IMG/VR virus record: IMGVR_UViG_2737471838_000004
Location: 1-55,334 of that record
Strand: one strand, 5' to 3'
Source: a virus
Taxonomy: Duplodnaviria; Heunggongvirae; Uroviricota; Caudoviricetes
DNA: 55,334 nt
Part shown: one piece after another, positions 24,800-45,902 of the stretch
Numbering within the stretch: position 1 is the first letter of the stretch
Layout: the number at the start of each line of letters is the position of its first letter
Notes under the pieces: generated by a model
Seen by the model: only the letters and a program-made list of their open reading frames with translations
What the model was told of the DNA's origin: nothing
Database searches by the model: none
Position numbers and translations under genes: made by a program

Positions 24800-26284
24800 T
24801 TAAAATCCGCGCAGGCGCTTCGGTAACATGAGGCCCATCGCCTGTGGCTGGCTCAGTTCGGTAATGCCCCATACCATTGCGTCCATACGGTCAGGGGATT
24901 TTTTGGCGGTAGCTGGCACGTATTCCATCATTTGATTTTCCAGCGTGTACAGTTCACCAGTGTGGGCCACCCTTCCTTGTGCATACAGTGCAGATATTGG
25001 TTCGGCGCGGGCGAATTTACCCTTGCTTGCGTGTACCTTAACAATGCGGCCTTTGAATCCTGCATTGCGTAGCGTGGCCTCTGCCATTTCACCGCCCTGG
25101 TTGGTTTCGATAACCATCGCGTCAGCCTCATGAATGTCGTATGCGCTCATTGCTGCTTGCGCCCAGGCATTAGGGGACATGCGGCCTGAGTAGTCACCAT
25201 CAACAGAATACTGAGCATTTTTACCGCCACCGTAAGCGGAACATGCAACGATCCCCGTTTCGTCCGATTCTTCCGATGATGTTGTAGCCGGGTCGATAGC
25301 TATTACCGTGCGGATCTTGTCCTGCGTTATCTGCATCCGGTGCGCTGCGGTTATCATGGCTTCAGTCCACAATGCACCCTCTTCGTCGAATTTACGCGGG
25401 CGCTGCATGTACTGGGCCTCAAATGACCGCCTGTGTGCTTTCAGTCCAGCTTCATGATCGTCATTATGTTTCCTGGGCCACAGCCAGCCATCAGGCAGGT
25501 TGTGAGCAATAGGGATGGCGAACTCGTTTTCAGGGTACAAATCCCAATAGTCAACGCTGTTGTCGATCTTCACTGGCAGGTTCAGGTGATACCACTTTTC
25601 CCCGCTCCCACCGCGTAACAGGTAGCCGGACAAATCATCGTAATGGATGCGCTGCATAATGACGATAACAGGCGTCGTTTGCACTGCCAGACGTGACGCA
25701 AGCGTGTCGTTATAGTTGGTGTTTACCTGCTTTCTCACTACGTCAGAATAAGCGTCAGCAGGTTTCAATGGGTCGTCGATGATTAACGCGCCGTTAAATC
25801 CTGGTTCCATATACCCGGCACGGAACCCAGTTACCTGGCCAAGCGATGAGGTCGCGTACACGCCGCCACCGTATTCTGTCCACCACATAGATTTACTGTT
25901 GGCATCATTGCGGATCTTCATGGGCCACATTGCCTGATATTCAGGCGTGCAGATCATGTTTCTTACAGTCGAGGAATTTAGTAATGCCAGGTTGTTGGAA
26001 TAGGAAACGTGAAGGAATCGTGTGCGGGGATTTATTGCGAGGGACCGCGCCATCATGTTGATAGTTGCGATCATGGTTTTGCCGTACCCTGGAGGGATGT
26101 TAATGATGAGTCGGGTTATCTCACCATTGACAACGCGTTGCAGTGCGTCGCGGATAGCTAAATGATGGCCTGAGATTAACATCTTCGTTCCGTTCGCTTG
26201 CTTGTAAAAGTAGCGATTGAAAAACAGGCCATCGTTTTCACATTTGGACTGAATTACTCGTTCTCTGATTGTCAGCATAATCAC
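24800..26284 (-). CDS. terminase large subunit
   Basis: 494 aa; Walker A-like PPGYGKT, ATPase and nuclease regions typical of TerL. Confidence 0.9.
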   Translation of the reverse strand: MIMLTIRERVIQSKCENDGLFFNRYFYKQANGTKMLISGHHLAIRDALQRVVNGEITRLIINIPPGYGKTMIATINMMARSLAINPRTRFLHVSYSNNLALLNSSTVRNMICTPEYQAMWPMKIRNDANSKSMWWTEYGGGVYATSSLGQVTGFRAGYMEPGFNGALIIDDPLKPADAYSDVVRKQVNTNYNDTLASRLAVQTTPVIVIMQRIHYDDLSGYLLRGGSGEKWYHLNLPVKIDNSVDYWDLYPENEFAIPIAHNLPDGWLWPRKHNDDHEAGLKAHRRSFEAQYMQRPRKFDEEGALWTEAMITAAHRMQITQDKIRTVIAIDPATTSSEESDETGIVACSAYGGGKNAQYSVDGDYSGRMSPNAWAQAAMSAYDIHEADAMVIETNQGGEMAEATLRNAGFKGRIVKVHASKGKFARAEPISALYAQGRVAHTGELYTLENQMMEYVPATAKKSPDRMDAMVWGITELSQPQAMGLMLPKRLRGF

Positions 26285-26766
26285 ACCTCGTCTTCTACTT
26301 CCTGGACGATGCGGGCGATCTCTTCTTTCGTGACTTCCACCTGGACGGGCGCTTCTTCCTTGTTGCCTACGATCTCCTGTGTGACGCGCTCGCCATACTT
26401 ACGCGGTTGCAGTTTTGCTAATAGCCATTTACGAGTTTCAATCATCAAATGGTGTCTGTTCAGTTCTTCCTTTTTGATGTTCTCTGGCGCGTCAGCAAGG
26501 TCGATGATCTCATCAGCTAACACCTCGAAGCCGATCTCCTTCGCGCGCATATACATGTCCGAAAACTCCGGCACATCTCTGAACCACTTGAGGATTGTTG
26601 AACGTGCAGGCATACCAGGCATCTTCGAAATCTTGTTAATACTTTCGCCGTCCGACACAAGCTCGCAGATCTCCAATGCCTTTTCTTCTGAATAGCCATG
26701 TGGACGGCCCACCTTTTTGGCTGCTGGCTTTTTATCGTCAGCATTTGCCTTTTTAGTGCGGGCCAT
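26281..26766 (-). CDS. terminase small subunit
   Basis: 161 aa; N-terminal basic region plus HTH (ICELVSDGESINKISK), overlaps TerL start. Confidence 0.8.
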   Translation of the reverse strand: MARTKKANADDKKPAAKKVGRPHGYSEEKALEICELVSDGESINKISKMPGMPARSTILKWFRDVPEFSDMYMRAKEIGFEVLADEIIDLADAPENIKKEELNRHHLMIETRKWLLAKLQPRKYGERVTQEIVGNKEEAPVQVEVTKEEIARIVQEVEDEV

Positions 26767-27666: not shown

Positions 27667-28209
27667 TCACCCCCGCTTAAAGCTCATAACACGCGGTACA
27701 AGCGCTTCTTTTGCTTTAGCCTTGCGTTTCCCTTTCTTCGCTGTTTTTTCTTCTTCCTTCGGCTGTTCTGCCTGTTCTAATGCCTGCTCAACGACTTCAG
27801 CCGCCTGCATTGCCGCTACCTGTGCTTCGTTTGATTCTGCCAGGATCGGGAAGAATGCATCAAAGATGCGGCCCACCATGTAAGCGTAAGTCTCATTCGC
27901 CGGATGAGATGGATCAGTGGTAGCCACGACGCCTACATCGCTTAAAACGTGAAATGTAGTGTGCGCCGCTTCATGGACCAGTGTTCCTAACTCATTGTCG
28001 AATACTGCGATCACGTAGAAGTTACCGCCTTTCTCGCCAGTGCAAGTAAGCGTCAATCCTCCTGCCAGTTCGAAATCAGGTTCGATCGGAATTCCTGCCT
28101 TTTCGCAAAATTCATAAAACATCTCGCGGGTCGGGCAAAAGAAAACGGTTGTATGCTCAAAGAGCGGTACTTTGAATTGAGGCAATTTAATGCCTTTAGC
28201 CTTAGCCAT
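27667..28209 (-). CDS. HExxH-motif protein (putative zinc metallopeptidase-like) with Lys-rich C-terminal tail
   Basis: 180-aa ORF with AGGAGA RBS; motif LVHEAAHTTFH; C-terminus KEEEKTAKKGKRKAKAKE. Confidence 0.5.
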   Translation of the reverse strand: MAKAKGIKLPQFKVPLFEHTTVFFCPTREMFYEFCEKAGIPIEPDFELAGGLTLTCTGEKGGNFYVIAVFDNELGTLVHEAAHTTFHVLSDVGVVATTDPSHPANETYAYMVGRIFDAFFPILAESNEAQVAAMQAAEVVEQALEQAEQPKEEEKTAKKGKRKAKAKEALVPRVMSFKRG

Positions 28210-28487
28210 CAGAATAATCTCCTATTCTGAAAAATATAACCCCCGCAAAACTCGACACCGCAGGGAGTGAAAACAGCTATAAAACACTGAAAACGGCGCT
28301 TCATCAGTACCGTTTCCAGAATTTTATAAAATTGGTGAATGGCGCTTTCTTCTACCCAGGTAGCGCCATACCTGTTAATGAGGTTGTTTACCCGGTATTA
28401 CGTGTTTTTGAATTTCCGCCGTCGCTCGCGGGAAGGATTGGCCCGGTTATGGCTGGCTGACAGAAACGGCGACACGTCAACGCGCTG

Positions 28488-28976
28488 TTATTCTTTGCGT
28501 AAGCACTGCGTTTTGATGTATCCCTGAAGCGCGGTTATCTTCGCATCCTTCTCTTTCAGTTGTTCTCTGAGGGATAGATAAGCCGATTCAGCGTCGGGAG
28601 TGAGTCTACAGGCGGCTCCATCAATGGCGCTGGCGGATCCGGTGGAGTCGGACACTCGCACAGGTGTTGCGTTGACGCGCAACCGGATAGAACCGTTATC
28701 AATGCCAGTGCGCAGATCGGCAATGTCAGATCTGATAGCTTTAATTTCATCGTGATACCTCTTATCAAGTTTTGACAGTTCGGCGTTTAGCTCCTTCATC
28801 TGCTGAATAGTGTTACTTGCTGTTTTCAGTGCGCCTTGCGTGGTCGTTAATTCTTCCTGTAACCTTGTCGCCTCACTCTGGTAATAGCATGTTACGGCGG
28901 TAAGGCTGGCAATGATGCAAACAACAGCGGCGATGATTAACGCCTTCACCTTGTCCACGTTTCCCCCCATTCGCAA
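28488..28976 (-). CDS. Rz: i-spanin (Rz-like)
   Basis: 162 aa; N-terminal TM helix, coiled-coil periplasmic domain; embedded +1-frame lipoprotein ORF. Confidence 0.8.
28556..28750 (-). CDS. Rz1: o-spanin (Rz1-like lipoprotein) embedded in Rz
   Basis: ORF 28556..28768 trimmed to MKLKLSDL; lipobox LSGC, Pro-rich ([14 protein letters not shown]); entirely within Rz in another frame. Confidence 0.7.
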   Translation of the reverse strand: MKLKLSDLTLPICALALITVLSGCASTQHLCECPTPPDPPAPLMEPPVDSLPTLNRLIYPSENN

Positions 28977-29437
28977 ACGGCATATTCAACCTCGCGGCGG
29001 TTTACCAGGCCTTGCCACTTCTTACCGCCAGCGTATACCCAGCGCTTAAGCTGTGCGCACGCCTCTGATTTCTTGCCGTCATTGAGCAGTTTTAATAAGG
29101 TTGATGTTTTGAAGTTGGTCGCGCCTACGTTATAGGCGAATGAATAAAGTGCAGCGCGGGTGAAATCTGATATTTCGACTTTGATATATGGGTCAATCGC
29201 TTTTGCGGTCTTGTGTAGATCTTTATTTAACAAAGCATCGCATTCTGATTGCGTGTAAGTCTTGCCAAGCATGATGTCTTTTCCGACGTGTCCATAACAT
29301 ATCGTGTAAACACCGATGACATCTCTGTATGGCTTATACTCAACGCCTTCAAGGTCTTTTATCATCACCCCCGCAATAGCGATCGCCCCACCAGCCGCCG
29401 CCGCAACAATCTTGTTTTTCAGCGATTGGCTAATCAT
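28946..29437 (-). CDS. SAR endolysin (T4-lysozyme-like glycoside hydrolase)
   Basis: ORF 28946..29518 trimmed to [25 protein letters not shown] (signal-anchor-release segment), then lysozyme-like region; follows holin by 1 nt. Confidence 0.8.
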
Positions 29438-29438
29438 G

Positions 29439-29639
29439 TTACTTATTCCCCATTCGTGCGTCGTGTTCCTCTTGCGCCCGCTTATTCTCCTGTGATTTGA
29501 AGTAATAATTAACGGCAAATGTGCCTATGGTTGATAAGATACCCACAAAGACGGCAATGTCATTGATGGTTATCGCGCCGAAAAAAGCAGTTACGGCCCC
29601 GGTCACATACGCACACGCCTCCCGTATTCTGTCGAACAT
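29439..29639 (-). CDS. holin
   Basis: 66 aa; two hydrophobic helices and charged C-terminus; GGAGG RBS; first gene of lysis cassette. Confidence 0.7.
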
Positions 29640-29655
29640 AGATTTACCTCCAACA

Positions 29656-29682
29656 AAGCAAAAACCCGGCGCGGGGCCGGGT
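29656..29682 (-). terminator. terminator hairpin immediately upstream of holin (tR'-like)
   Basis: CCCGGC CCCGC GCCGGG hairpin followed by TTTTTGCTTTG on the minus strand. Confidence 0.5.
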
Positions 29683-29710
29683 AGTTACAGTTTCGCATTG
29701 TTAGGTAATA

Positions 29711-29739
29711 TTTTAATCTGTTTGTTTTCGACCCACAAA
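29711..29739 (-). promoter_or_regulatory. candidate late promoter (PR'-like; TTGTGG-17-TAAAAT)
   Basis: good -35/-10 with 17-bp spacer about 25 nt upstream of the terminator and about 70 nt upstream of the holin start. Confidence 0.4.
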
Positions 29740-29806
29740 TACGGCTTTACTGCTTTCTGTATATCAGGCCATTATCAAGTAGCATTTGCATGTGCCAACG
29801 ATCCAT

Positions 29807-35804: not shown

Positions 35805-36289
35805 GGAGGATTTCTCATTTCATATTTGTGAAAACCGTATTTTATTTCAGCGTCACGTCTAGCGCGTATTGCGTCTTCTATATCTTTAAACCTCCCTAAA
35901 TAGATTGTTTTGCCGTTTACATGTATAAAAGCGTCATAAGCGTTTTTATGGAAGTAGACCCCGGTTATTCCTAGTTTATTATTTTTCTGCACGTTCCTAT
36001 TTTGTTGGTTTTGCTGTGGAGTAACAAGAAACAGGTTTTCTATATTATTATTTAGTCGGTTTCTATCAAAATGATCTATTTGATACCCTTCCGGGATCGG
36101 GCCGTTGTGCATCTCCCAAATAATATGATGTGCCAAATACATGTTTTGTTTGTATTTTATTAATCTGTAAGACGTTGTGCTACTCACACAACCAGCAAGA
36201 TCACCGACACAAATTTTTCCGTGTTTTGGTTTTATTTTCCAGTAAAGATCGCCATTTCTATATTCAAATATATCACCCCAATTATGCAC
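35801..36289 (-). CDS. HNH homing-endonuclease-like protein (HNH + AP2-like)
   Basis: 162 aa; IWEMHNGPIPEGYQIDHFDRNRLNN...NLFLVT; paralog of 49570..50073 and 52979..53437. Confidence 0.75.
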   Translation of the reverse strand: MHNWGDIFEYRNGDLYWKIKPKHGKICVGDLAGCVSSTTSYRLIKYKQNMYLAHHIIWEMHNGPIPEGYQIDHFDRNRLNNNIENLFLVTPQQNQQNRNVQKNNKLGITGVYFHKNAYDAFIHVNGKTIYLGRFKDIEDAIRARRDAEIKYGFHKYEMRNPP

Positions 36290-36890
36290 ACTTACCTCTC
36301 CTTAAATCATCTAATTTTTTTTGATAGTATTGAATAAGCTCTTTACACTCCTGAATGGTCCATTTATGAGTCTCGTTATTATTTTCTAATGCCTCCACCC
36401 GTTTTAAGCCAATGCGCTTAATCAAATTAATTCTGTATAGTTTGATATTCCCGTCTAATACCTGATTGCAGTGCTTACATTGACGATGAATATTGTCCTC
36501 ATTAAAACGAAGATGCCCGGCGGCGGCTACACTTCTCATATGCCCCGCGTCCCAACCGCATTGATCGCCGTAGTAAGTGCCACACGAAATACAGGGTAAA
36601 TTTGCGTCGCGCTCTCTTATATACGCATTACATACCGCCTGGCACTGTTTCAACCAATAACTACGCGGATTTAACTGTTTCCGCTTACGGTTGCGTTCTT
36701 CCCGCTGGCTATCACGGCGTTTCTTCCGTTCCATCGCCTTCATAGCCTTCTCACGGTCGCGGCATAACTGGTCAAACTTCAGTTCTTCCAGACATTCATC
36801 GCTGCACCACGTTTGATTGTGATATTTAGGCTCAAAAAAAACGCCGCAGCATTTGCAACGGCGTCGTATGGGTTTTTTAGGGTTTTGCAT
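36282..36890 (-). CDS. ninG: NinG (Rap) recombination-associated protein
   Basis: ORF 36282..37019 trimmed to MQNPKKPIRRRCKCCG with GGGGTGG RBS; Cys-rich N-terminus and LPCISCG...DAGH...RFNE..NIH.QC..CN motifs of the NinG family. Confidence 0.75.
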   Translation of the reverse strand: MQNPKKPIRRRCKCCGVFFEPKYHNQTWCSDECLEELKFDQLCRDREKAMKAMERKKRRDSQREERNRKRKQLNPRSYWLKQCQAVCNAYIRERDANLPCISCGTYYGDQCGWDAGHMRSVAAAGHLRFNEDNIHRQCKHCNQVLDGNIKLYRINLIKRIGLKRVEALENNNETHKWTIQECKELIQYYQKKLDDLRRGKCA

Positions 36891-36904
36891 AAAAACCACC
36901 CCGA

Positions 36905-37081
36905 TTATTTTTGATTCTCTGTTTCGTTCAGCCTTTCGGCGTGTCCGGCCCTTAGCCAATGATCTAAACATTCGTTGCACTCGTTGCAGTCTCCTTTCTT
37001 CGTGCTGCATACATTGCACATTGCACGCATGACGCTTTCTCGTTCATAGTCGTCATGCCATTGGTAATTATCAAAAGGCAT
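36905..37081 (-). CDS. small Cys-rich (zinc-ribbon-like) protein
   Basis: hand-translated 58 aa MPFDNYQWHDDYERESVMRAMCNVCSTKKGDCNECNECLDHW...; AAGGAGA RBS. Confidence 0.4.
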   Translation of the reverse strand: MPFDNYQWHDDYERESVMRAMCNVCSTKKGDCNECNECLDHWLRAGHAERLNETENQK

Positions 37082-37240
37082 AATGCTCTCTCCTTTTCAG
37101 GTGATTTCTACGCATTTCAGCGCTGCCGGATTTTTAAAGAGCATTTCGTTTGCTTGAAGTATACAAAATGGATACACCATAACAAGACAAAAAGCGCCAT
37201 TATGTGATCCGCATCACGCAATGACGCCATTTTGTAAATT

Positions 37241-44262: not shown

Positions 44263-44553
44263 TTAATGGTAGCGGACTTTATCCAGGGGTTTTTCCCCTA
44301 GTTGGCGTGGTTGCGTTGCGTGGTAGTAGTTGCCGCTTTCATTCTCCGTATACCATTTTACTGATCCTTTGCGACGTTCTTTAATGCTATTTGATTTGCA
44401 TCTTTCCTCGTTTGCAAAGCGAATAGCTTTATCCACATTGTCTGTTTTATTAATTGCAGGTGATGATTTTCTTTCGTTTTCTCTTTTTATTCTTCTGCGT
44501 TCCCTGGCATTCATTTTGCTATCACATTTGCCATACATAATTGTAACGGTCAT
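44263..44553 (-). CDS. N: N-like transcription antiterminator (arginine-rich motif)
   Basis: 96 aa; N-terminus MTVTIMYGK...NARERRRIKRENERK resembles the P22 N-type arginine-rich boxB-binding motif; AAGGAGA RBS; first gene downstream of pL-like promoter and nutL-like site. Confidence 0.55.
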   Translation of the reverse strand: MTVTIMYGKCDSKMNARERRRIKRENERKSSPAINKTDNVDKAIRFANEERCKSNSIKERRKGSVKWYTENESGNYYHATQPRQLGEKPLDKVRYH

Positions 44554-44608: not shown

Positions 44609-44646
44609 GCCGCACTTCCAGCGGCTGACCAGATTGTTAAAGAGCG
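44609..44646 (-). promoter_or_regulatory. nutL-like site: boxA (CGCTCTTTAACAA) + 8-nt spacer + boxB-like hairpin (GCCGC TGGAAGT GCGGC)
   Basis: read on minus strand in the leader between pL-like promoter and N; boxA matches the CGCTCTTTAACAA consensus. Confidence 0.45.
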
Positions 44647-45870: not shown

Positions 45871-45902
45871 GCTCTTTAAAAACCAGGTGTCGCTGCGAAG
45901 CG
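45871..45902 (+). promoter_or_regulatory. nutR-like site: boxA-like (GCTCTTTAAAAA) + 8-nt spacer + small GNRA-type hairpin
   Basis: in the cI/right-operon intergenic region upstream of the first plus-strand gene; weaker match than nutL. Confidence 0.3.

Follow-up and report, generated by a model that had tools for sequence, protein, structure and literature searches.

An inverted repeat between the lysis and packaging genes of an mEp021-like coliphage is probably one helix of a conserved, structured RNA module

Introduction

What is the role of the perfect inverted repeat that lies between the lysis and packaging genes of an mEp021-like (mEpimmI) coliphage? The phage is represented by IMG/VR virus record IMGVR_UViG_2737471838_000004, whose 55,334 nucleotides (nt), hereafter called the window, were analysed in full. 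Two half-sites, ATGGCGCT (28339-28346) and AGCGCCAT (28362-28369), are exact reverse complements of one another across a 15-nt spacer, and this dyad was found again independently in our analysis as inverted repeat I4. It occupies a non-coding gap between the genes for Rz and for an HExxH protein, both of which are read from the minus strand. An earlier note, made from the sequence alone, gave the length of this gap as 280 base pairs (bp); the gap is indeed non-coding, and it measures 278 bp (28210-28487) from the Rz stop codon to the ATG of the HExxH gene. The same note called the gap otherwise unexplained, which is fair given that the only features marked there in the records of relatives are a predicted terminator (TERM_6 in mEp021, T11 in mEp013) and tiny open reading frames (ORFs) that are broken by insertions and deletions.

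Three roles had been suggested for the dyad, namely a protein-binding site, a packaging-related site or an RNA hairpin. The last of these is right in kind, and its scope is too small. Comparative data indicate that the dyad is probably an RNA helix rather than a free-standing site, and that it forms one stem of a folded, conserved, untranslated RNA on the sense (minus) strand. The expectation of a hairpin thus holds for a 6-bp core helix, and it does not hold for an isolated hairpin, because the spacer is itself base-paired to sequence further upstream and the dyad belongs to a larger module of 208 nt and nine helices. Below, we describe the evidence for this module, propose a function for it in conjunction with its terminator, and weigh the other explanations.

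Results

Conservation and sense-strand pairing of the dyad stem

Taken alone, the 8-bp dyad is no more than chance would provide. The window contains 42 perfect 8-bp inverted repeats with spacers of 3-20 nt, compared with 16.6 +/- 6.1 in dinucleotide shuffles, and at least one such dyad is present in 8% of shuffled 278-bp gaps (P about 0.08). The dyad motif is present as a single copy in the genome. Nor does it have the properties of an intrinsic terminator, given that AUUCACCAAUUUUAU follows the stem, that the first run of U residues begins 9 nt after the stem, and that a terminator scan made no call at this location; the terminator is instead the next hairpin, T1 (described below).

A different view is provided by related sequences. 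Gap sequences gathered from IMG/VR, metagenomes, Escherichia coli (E. coli) genomes and assemblies represent 129 loci, of which 60 are distinct, and these 60 are the basis for the counts given below unless otherwise indicated. The inner 6 bp of the dyad, formed by the 5' arm GGCGCU (28362..28367, minus strand; the core of the right half-site AGCGCCAT as written on the plus strand) and the 3' arm AGCGCC (28341..28346, minus strand), are paired in 99.7% of cells. In contrast, the outermost pair is A-T in only 4 of the 60 sequences and the next pair is T-A in only 2, such that the outer pairs are lineage-specific. The conservation in related phages that had been proposed as a check is therefore evident for the inner 6 bp and absent for the outer 2 bp. 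The additional A-U dinucleotide by which the stem reaches 8 bp (28368..28369, minus strand) belongs to the lineage of this phage, and relatives carry a variable linker of 1-3 nt at the same place.

Sequence changes within the inner stem are rare and tend to preserve pairing. One stem pair is G-C in 57 sequences, G.U in one (L120) and A-U in two (L053 and L123), and a second is G-C in 58 and G.U in one (mEp021/mEp515). The loop-proximal pair is C.A in one sequence. Pairing in the G.U states of the dyad is confined to the minus strand, the sense strand of the late genes.

The dyad and its spacer together make up a 27-nt core (GGCGCUACCUGGGUAGAAGAAAGCGCC) that is the least variable part of the gap, with a nucleotide diversity of 0.005 versus 0.04-0.25 in the remaining gap. 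Insertions or deletions of 7, 8 and 58/59 nt begin just 3' of this core, and the 3' arm survives the 7-nt and 8-nt deletions that start right after AGCGCC (in L022 and L126). The core is also unchanged in L126, which is the most divergent element recovered, although the arms of three other helices (P1, P2 and T1, described below) are rewritten there.

A conserved 208-nt module that ends at a terminator

Alignments of sequences with differing neighbours delimit a conserved non-coding module of 208 nt (28279..28486, minus strand), which runs from just past the upstream stop codon to the end of a terminator, T1. The module comprises nine helices and is present once in the window. In 5' to 3' order it consists of a P1-P2 domain, a junction formed by helix Ha, mini-hairpin P5, helix Hb and the dyad, an AU-rich tract, and T1. 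The 5' domain (28400..28477, minus strand) is built from P1 (28472-28477 with 28400-28405) and P2 (28459-28465 with 28414-28420), which together enclose an almost invariant, C-rich segment of 40 nt (28419-28458, minus strand). T1 (28279..28327, minus strand), found as inverted repeat I1 and annotated as a predicted terminator in mEp021 and mEp013, is a long hairpin with 7 + 10 + 3 bp, a hypervariable 5-nt loop and a U-rich 3' side. A perfect 14-bp palindrome composed only of A and T (AATTTTATAAAATT, 28320-28333) is located between the dyad and the GC-rich part of T1; its 3' half coincides with the foot of the extended T1 stem, and its core TTTATAAAA is conserved in relatives.

Support for this architecture comes from covariation. 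With a set of 21 chosen variants, the 59 proposed pairs are formed in 98.5% of cases, compared with 40-50% when the 3' partners are slid out of register. Eleven pairs are changed on both sides in this set, whereas shuffled alignments yield 3.6 +/- 1.3 and none of 500 shuffles reaches 11. When all 60 distinct sequences are used, 98.8% of cells are paired on the sense strand versus 92.3% on the antisense strand. Compensatory changes occur in three of the six P1 pairs and three of the seven P2 pairs, and the T1 stem exhibits G-C/G.U/A-U and A-U/G-C changes together with nine versions of its 5-nt loop. L126 is particularly informative because it rewrites four P1/P2 pairs and one T1 pair, all of which can still form, and retains the junction and the dyad core without change.

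Between the core and T1, 13 of the 60 distinct sequences carry an optional insert of 58 or 59 nt that is absent from the window (for example, positions 3560-3625 of L001, which is mEp021). This insert lies directly 3' of the dyad and folds into two hairpins with compensatory U-A/U.G/C-G changes. These two covarying hairpins add to the case for structured RNA in this region. The 3' part of the insert also shares the sequence AGATGTTAAGC with the region just upstream of nutR1, one of the nut sites of this phage group.

The module keeps its identity while both of its neighbours vary. On the upstream side, relatives carry Rz, a 100-amino-acid ORF (RM9245 and L130/131) or a 200-amino-acid ORF (L125). 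Downstream of T1 there are at least two unrelated versions of the segment that follows (leader types), and in L129 an HNH gene has been inserted. The module always ends at T1. Two further hairpins are seen beyond this end. In the window, T1 is followed by another GC-rich hairpin, which has a U-rich tail (28240-28267, minus strand), and many relatives have an unrelated segment there instead. In addition, a conserved hairpin of 8 bp extends to the ATG of the HExxH gene (28210-28229, minus strand) and holds the Shine-Dalgarno sequence of that gene in its loop; relatives retain it through a G.U change.

The small ORFs annotated in this region do not offer a coding explanation for its conservation. 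Insertions and deletions of 1, 7-8 and 58/59 nt break their frames, and both the ATG at 28339 (plus strand) and the TTG at 28480 (minus strand) are absent from most relatives. Because of these frame-breaking changes and lost start codons, the small ORFs are very probably spurious rather than genes. Those that overlap the module are 28388-28480 (minus strand) and 28339-28527 (plus strand) in the window, along with MagusPhagus CDS0061/0062, mEp554_71, mEp010_77, mEp044_71 and mEp515_63 in the records of relatives.

The module likewise has no counterpart among catalogued RNAs. A search of the gap in the window with 4227 Rfam models, including riboswitches, ribozymes, and phage and antitermination RNAs, yielded no match at E <= 10, and the gaps of three relatives, one of which bears the insert, yielded none at E <= 5. 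No tRNA or tmRNA was detected by ARAGORN.

Pairing of the dyad spacer with upstream sequences

An RNAalifold consensus calculated from 46 sequences predicts two helices, Ha and Hb, that account for much of the dyad spacer, in which 9 of the 15 nt pair with upstream sequence. Hb, also found as inverted repeat I7, joins its 5' arm CAGGU (28370..28374, minus strand) to the 3' arm ACCUG (28357..28361, minus strand) inside the spacer. Ha joins its 5' arm UACC (28394..28397, minus strand) to the 3' arm GGUA (28353..28356, minus strand), which is also inside the spacer and is followed by an invariant, A-rich GAAGAA (28347-28352). Between the two 5' arms resides the mini-hairpin P5 (GGGU-AAACA-ACCU; 28381..28393, minus strand).

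These helices vary in ways that are consistent with pairing. One Ha pair is A-U in 55 sequences, G.U in three (including L004 and L038) and G-C in two (L080 and L120). In L080 and L120, the otherwise invariant core changes from GGGUAG to GGGCAG, and it is precisely in this lineage that the pairing partner has changed as well. Hb is invariant save for one G-C to G.U change (L123). Three P5 pairs vary (A-U in 47, G-C in 12 and G.U in one sequence; G-C in 47 and G.U in 11; U.G in 34 and U-A in 22), as does the length of its loop. For the junction alone, 99.2% of cells are paired and three pairs covary.

The dyad crosses both Ha and Hb. From 5' to 3' the order of elements is CAGGU, 1-3 variable nt, GGCGCU, ACCUG, GGUAGAAGAA and AGCGCC, which is the order of an H-type pseudoknot. 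Variants of the linker (loop 1) include C, CA, CG, CC, AU, AG, AC, CU and CCG, with both flanking arms fixed, and this freedom in sequence and in length (1-3 nt) between fixed arms is as expected of a pseudoknot linker. We therefore considered a model in which Ha, Hb and the dyad would form an H-type pseudoknot on a three-way junction, with a 5-bp stem 1, a loop 1 of 1-3 nt, the dyad as stem 2 and an A-rich loop 3. Alternatively, the RNA might alternate between two folds of near-equal energy, as the nested alternatives (dyad versus Ha plus Hb) differ by <2 kcal/mol. From the comparative data, we rate a true pseudoknot as conceivable and somewhat short of an even prospect.

Phage, late gene order and sampling

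Identity across the region is 89-95% with seven phages of the mEp021/mEpimmI group and with the prophages found in 35 of 5,426 complete E. coli genomes. Phages of this group are Nus-dependent and non-lambdoid, and employ an N-like antiterminator, Gp17, that acts on three nut sites rather than two (PMC11893012). They have been reported to be as common as lambdoid phages in human gut samples (PMC11893012).

All late genes around the gap are on the minus strand, in the order holin (29439-29639), endolysin (28946-29518), Rz with an embedded Rz1 (28488-28976), the gap, the 180-amino-acid HExxH protein (27667-28209), terS (26281-26766) and terL (24800-26284). TerS is Sf6-like (PF20901, E = 3e-36) and TerL carries Terminase_6C. 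The HExxH protein is without a Pfam match and falls in PHROG 1365 (unknown function), with all relatives found being E. coli-associated; a distant one, P0118 (62% identity), has the nr name 'PolyVal metallopeptidase superfamily domain'.

Sampling of the region is confined to close relatives. The phage collection contains only seven, protein searches returned only E. coli-associated relatives of at least 62% identity, a plasmid collection gave no match to the region, and two genome-contig scans, made with Rz and with the HExxH protein, found no more distant homologues. Genes for HNH_3 endonucleases are present in L123 (1252-1773), L124 (3750-4253), L129 (613-1185), L132 (1697-2200) and L002, which is mEp013 (2348-2833). 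Depending on the relative, such a gene follows endolysin (ahead of Rz), terS, the RNA module (ahead of the HExxH gene) or the HExxH gene itself, a distribution suggesting that a mobile HNH gene has inserted here repeatedly and independently.

A possible role in transcription read-through at T1

Starting from the helices and their covariation, the sense-strand bias, the modularity and the conservation described above, we infer a mechanism for the module as follows. Together with T1, the module would set the amount of transcription, or of mRNA, that continues beyond the lysis cassette to the genes for packaging and the head. The explanation we judge best overall, in which the dyad helix is part of a cis-acting module that works with T1, is in our estimation evenly poised between right and wrong. 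A cis-acting RNA that functions at a distance together with T1 is suggested by the conserved terminator end, by the location at the lysis/packaging junction, by the invariant unpaired segments and by the tolerance of a 59-nt insertion.

How such control might be exerted is a more tentative matter. The likeliest target of the folded core would be elongating RNA polymerase or a polymerase-bound factor, with read-through of T1 as the outcome. The presence of an insert between core and T1 would be allowed by a distance-tolerant, polymerase-directed mechanism of this kind. By analogy with the put RNAs of phage HK022 and the EAR element of Bacillus, read-through is one possible mechanism, and we advance it tentatively. 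It remains our preference over a role as a 3'-end, processing or trans-acting RNA, which we regard as doubtful. A bolder proposal, that the module represents a new class of phage RNA controlling read-through at the boundary between lysis and morphogenesis, is unlikely as things stand; such an RNA might be a factor-independent processive-antitermination RNA (put/EAR-like, unrelated in sequence and pseudoknotted) or a two-state sensor, switching between the dyad and Ha/Hb, by which a widespread group of temperate gut coliphages would gate its packaging and head genes. A candidate attenuator/antiterminator pairing of CCGUUUCC (the 5' arm of P2) with GGAAACGG (the 5' arm of T1) was also considered and rejected. 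Although perfect in most sequences, this pairing does not covary with the T1 position that varies, and L126 has lost it.

Several observations weigh against the structural model and the function we propose for it. Five of the 11 compensatory pairs come from L126 alone, and the set of 21 sequences used for covariation was chosen to display variation. One covarying pair supports the dyad, one supports Ha, and the support for Hb is a single G.U change. Furthermore, two of the retrieval patterns fixed CATTAACAGGT and ACCTGGGTAGAAGAA, which are the arms of Hb, so the invariance of Hb is partly by construction in those sets; two other retrieval sets are free of such bias. The relatives are close (89-99% identity), and independent substitution events are therefore few. 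A simple terminator scan of the window did not call T1, and Rfam revealed no similarity to known antitermination RNAs.

A final concern is that the phage may have no need of a second device for read-through. A gene for a Q-type antiterminator (PF03589; 34497-35219, minus strand) is located 4.7 kb upstream of a promoter-terminator pair that resembles pR'/tR' and lies just before the holin gene. In this pair, a promoter-like TTGGCA-16-GATAAT (10/12 matches; 29798-29771, minus strand) precedes a strong GC-rich terminator (29682-29664, minus strand) by ~90 nt. The Q-type antiterminator and this pair may already carry polymerase through T1, in which case a second read-through device could be unnecessary. 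At the equivalent location in L001 (4951-5042, minus strand; approximately window 29660-29750), there is a sub-threshold Rfam match to rnk_pseudo (26.5 bits versus a gathering threshold of 55, E = 0.71), which probably reflects only the hairpin of this pre-holin terminator.

Alternative explanations for the module and the dyad

Among the alternatives, the one that fares best holds that the module governs RNA fate or acts in trans. With T1, it could serve as a stable 3' terminus for the lysis transcript; it could be where processing separates the message for lysis from that for morphogenesis, with the extended 20-bp T1 hairpin as a nuclease target; or it could be released as a trans-acting RNA of ~200 nt. 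Such functions would suit a discrete module that starts after a stop codon, ends at its own terminator, has an AU-rich tract adjoining the terminator hairpin, and contains invariant unpaired segments (the 40-nt C-rich stretch, CAUUAA and GAAGAA) that could be recognition or seed sequences. Moreover, pairing in the T1 stem can continue into the U-tract only when polymerase transcribes beyond it, a dependence that recalls sib/tI retroregulation in phage lambda. However, there is no promoter-like site in or just upstream of the module, no sigma-70-like promoter was found in the gap, and the upstream context differs among relatives. Without a promoter, and with this varying context, a released RNA would need processing. 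A 160-nt domain with invariant loops is also not needed for simple 3'-end protection.

Another explanation, which we think improbable, is that the gap contains a fourth nut site. In this scheme, CUCAUUAACA (28373..28382, minus strand) would be a boxA, the dyad would be a boxB-like hairpin, and the two would load Gp17 and Nus factors on RNA polymerase just before T1. The Gp17 homologue of the window is encoded at 44263-44553 (minus strand; phrog_271, with a weak match to PF25694). With nut boundaries taken from the sequence and from PMC11893012, the boxA cores are at 37132-37141 (nutR2, minus strand), 44635-44644 (nutR1, minus strand) and 45872-45881 (nutL, plus strand), and each is followed by a short boxB stem of the CGCU type. 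The pattern CTCWTTAAMA matches the window five times versus 0.63 expected; three of these matches are nutR1, nutR2 and nutL, and the fourth is CUCAUUAACA, located on the transcribed strand with its first two bases within P5. This site is 3-5 nt before the strongest downstream hairpin (-17 kcal/mol), a terminator follows it, and its distance of ~8.7 kb downstream of nutR2 is similar to the spacing of nutR1 and nutR2 (7.5 kb). CGCU is common to the dyad and to the 5' arms of all three boxB stems. A comparison of the nutR1 region of mEp021, which has been studied by experiment (CGCTCATTAACAA...GGTCAGCCGCT), with the gap of the same phage (CATTAACA-GGTCAGGCGCT) gave a score reached by 10 of 500 shuffles, which is marginal, and the group has already been reported to have three nut sites rather than two (PMC11893012).

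Closer comparison with the genuine sites does not favour a fourth nut site. For a boxA consensus of the GCUCUUUAACAA type (CUC[A/U]UUAA[C/A]A in the group), the window reads CUCAUUAACA, and the two bases before CAUUAACA vary among relatives and pair in P5. Approximately 50 of the 60 relatives read CCCAUUAACA, and the 5' half of boxA, which is the part common to lambda boxA, is variable and falls in the covarying P5. Real boxB hairpins (GCCGC-UGGAAGU-GCGGC, (G)CGC-UGAAAU-GCG(U) and UCGCU-GCGA-AGCGA) have A-rich loops of 4-7 nt with G first after CGCU, whereas the "loop" of the dyad is 15 nt long, has A first and is paired elsewhere. The spacing from boxA to the stem is 3-5 nt rather than the 8-9 nt of real sites. 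Local alignments of the window gap with its own nut regions score no better than chance (302-358 of 500 shuffles), and 6-8-mers are shared only at the background level.

Some other sequences that resemble parts of the nut regions were noted. The fifth match to the boxA pattern (CTCATTAAAA, 36498-36507, plus strand) is antisense to the NinG gene (36282-37019, minus strand), has no CGCU-type hairpin after it, and is probably due to chance. A similarity of ATGGCGCT..ATTCACC to the terminator upstream of mEp021 nutR2 was rejected, as it is not conserved in the window and has chance frequency.

The suggestion in the earlier note of a protein-binding DNA site is very unlikely to be correct. The half-sites GGCGCT and AGCGCC have centres 21 bp apart, or two helical turns, and could in principle bind a dimeric phage or host protein. 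The fixed 15-bp spacer and the strong conservation over 27 bp, spacer included, would fit this arrangement, and the double change from G-C to A-T keeps the symmetry of the DNA as well as the RNA pairing. However, single changes of the G.U type (AGCGTC and AGTGCC) break DNA symmetry and keep pairing in the sense-strand RNA, and the spacer covaries with a base 50 nt upstream, which is not predicted by a DNA half-site model. The motif is also single-copy in the genome and has no adjacent regulator gene. It is this sense-strand-specific G.U pattern, together with the nested RNA helices, that disfavours a DNA site.

Equally slim, or slightly more so, is the chance that the dyad is a fortuitous palindrome in a region that looks conserved only through close kinship. 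The frequency of such dyads in shuffled gaps, the unconserved outer 2 bp and the high overall identity among relatives are compatible with this idea. They do not explain why variability in the core is 10-50 times lower than in the flanking sequence, why the dyad has one compensated pair and two G.U intermediates, or why it is intact in L126 despite the rewritten neighbouring helices. Finally, a packaging signal (cos or pac), as the earlier note also suggested, is scarcely credible: although the dyad is located between the lysis genes and terS, as is cos in lambda, and is GC-rich with nested symmetry (CTACCTGGGTAG), the Sf6-like TerS, accompanied by a Terminase_6C TerL, indicates headful packaging from a pac inside terS as in P22/Sf6-type phages, the dyad is 1.6 kb upstream of terS with the 180-amino-acid gene and several small ORFs between, and none of the seven deposited relatives starts its record here.

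Discussion

The module described above is newly defined, with exact boundaries, a single copy, no entry in Rfam, and comparative support for nine helices and possibly a pseudoknot. Control of late genes in mEpimmI phages is undescribed so far. If read-through control were the true function, the module would add one more RNA to a very short list of cis-acting antitermination RNAs, and mutations in the dyad, Ha and Hb would provide a handle on the timing of morphogenesis relative to lysis. If the module is only a 3'-end or processing structure, the finding would be an ordinary one, yet it would still correct the annotation of small ORFs in GenBank records.

Comparison with known systems

Within the same phage group, nutR1, nutR2 and nutL of mEp021 are reportedly Gp17-dependent (PMC11893012, citing Valencia-Toxqui et al. 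2023). The module resembles these sites in lying on the transcribed strand and immediately ahead of an intrinsic terminator, and in combining a boxA-like CUCAUUAACA with a GC-rich stem just after it in which CGCU closes the 5' arm. It differs from them in its location in the late region, downstream of the gene for a Q-type antiterminator, and in having a boxA 5' half that is unconserved and base-paired.

The putL and putR sites of HK022 are RNAs of ~70 nt with two stem-loops that are located just downstream of early promoters, bind the zinc-binding domain of beta', and cause processive antitermination independently of protein factors (PMC9378689). Like put, the module could be a phage-encoded, folded nascent RNA that acts in cis upstream of terminators, with critical non-helical features and tolerance for the distance to the terminator. 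Its 208 nt, nine helices and intercistronic position in the late region set it apart from put in size, architecture and position.

The EAR element of Bacillales (Irnov and Winkler 2010) is reportedly an intercistronic antitermination RNA that contains a pseudoknot, resides in a long operon and is followed by intrinsic terminators. The module may be comparable in being a structured and putatively pseudoknotted RNA between genes of a long operon, followed by an intrinsic terminator. It comes from a different phylum and a different type of operon, and the gap is without an Rfam match.

With respect to its fold, the putative junction would have the proportions of an H-type pseudoknot, with stems 1 and 2 of 5 and 6 bp, a loop 1 of 1-3 nt, an A-rich, 10-nt loop 3 and no loop 2. 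Unlike this fold, however, four bases of loop 3 (GGUA) also pair with the upstream UACC, and do so with covariation, such that the fold would be either more complex or a two-state switch.

Last, T1 rather than the dyad invites comparison with TerR of pLS20, a terminator with a 15-bp stem that resists antitermination, where the average terminator stem is 7-9 bp (PMC10325885). The T1 hairpin can be extended to ~20 bp, a likeness that we offer only as a lead. The conAn system of B. subtilis is the only one for which the resistance has been demonstrated, and much of the T1 stem consists of A-U pairs (A-tract with U-tract).

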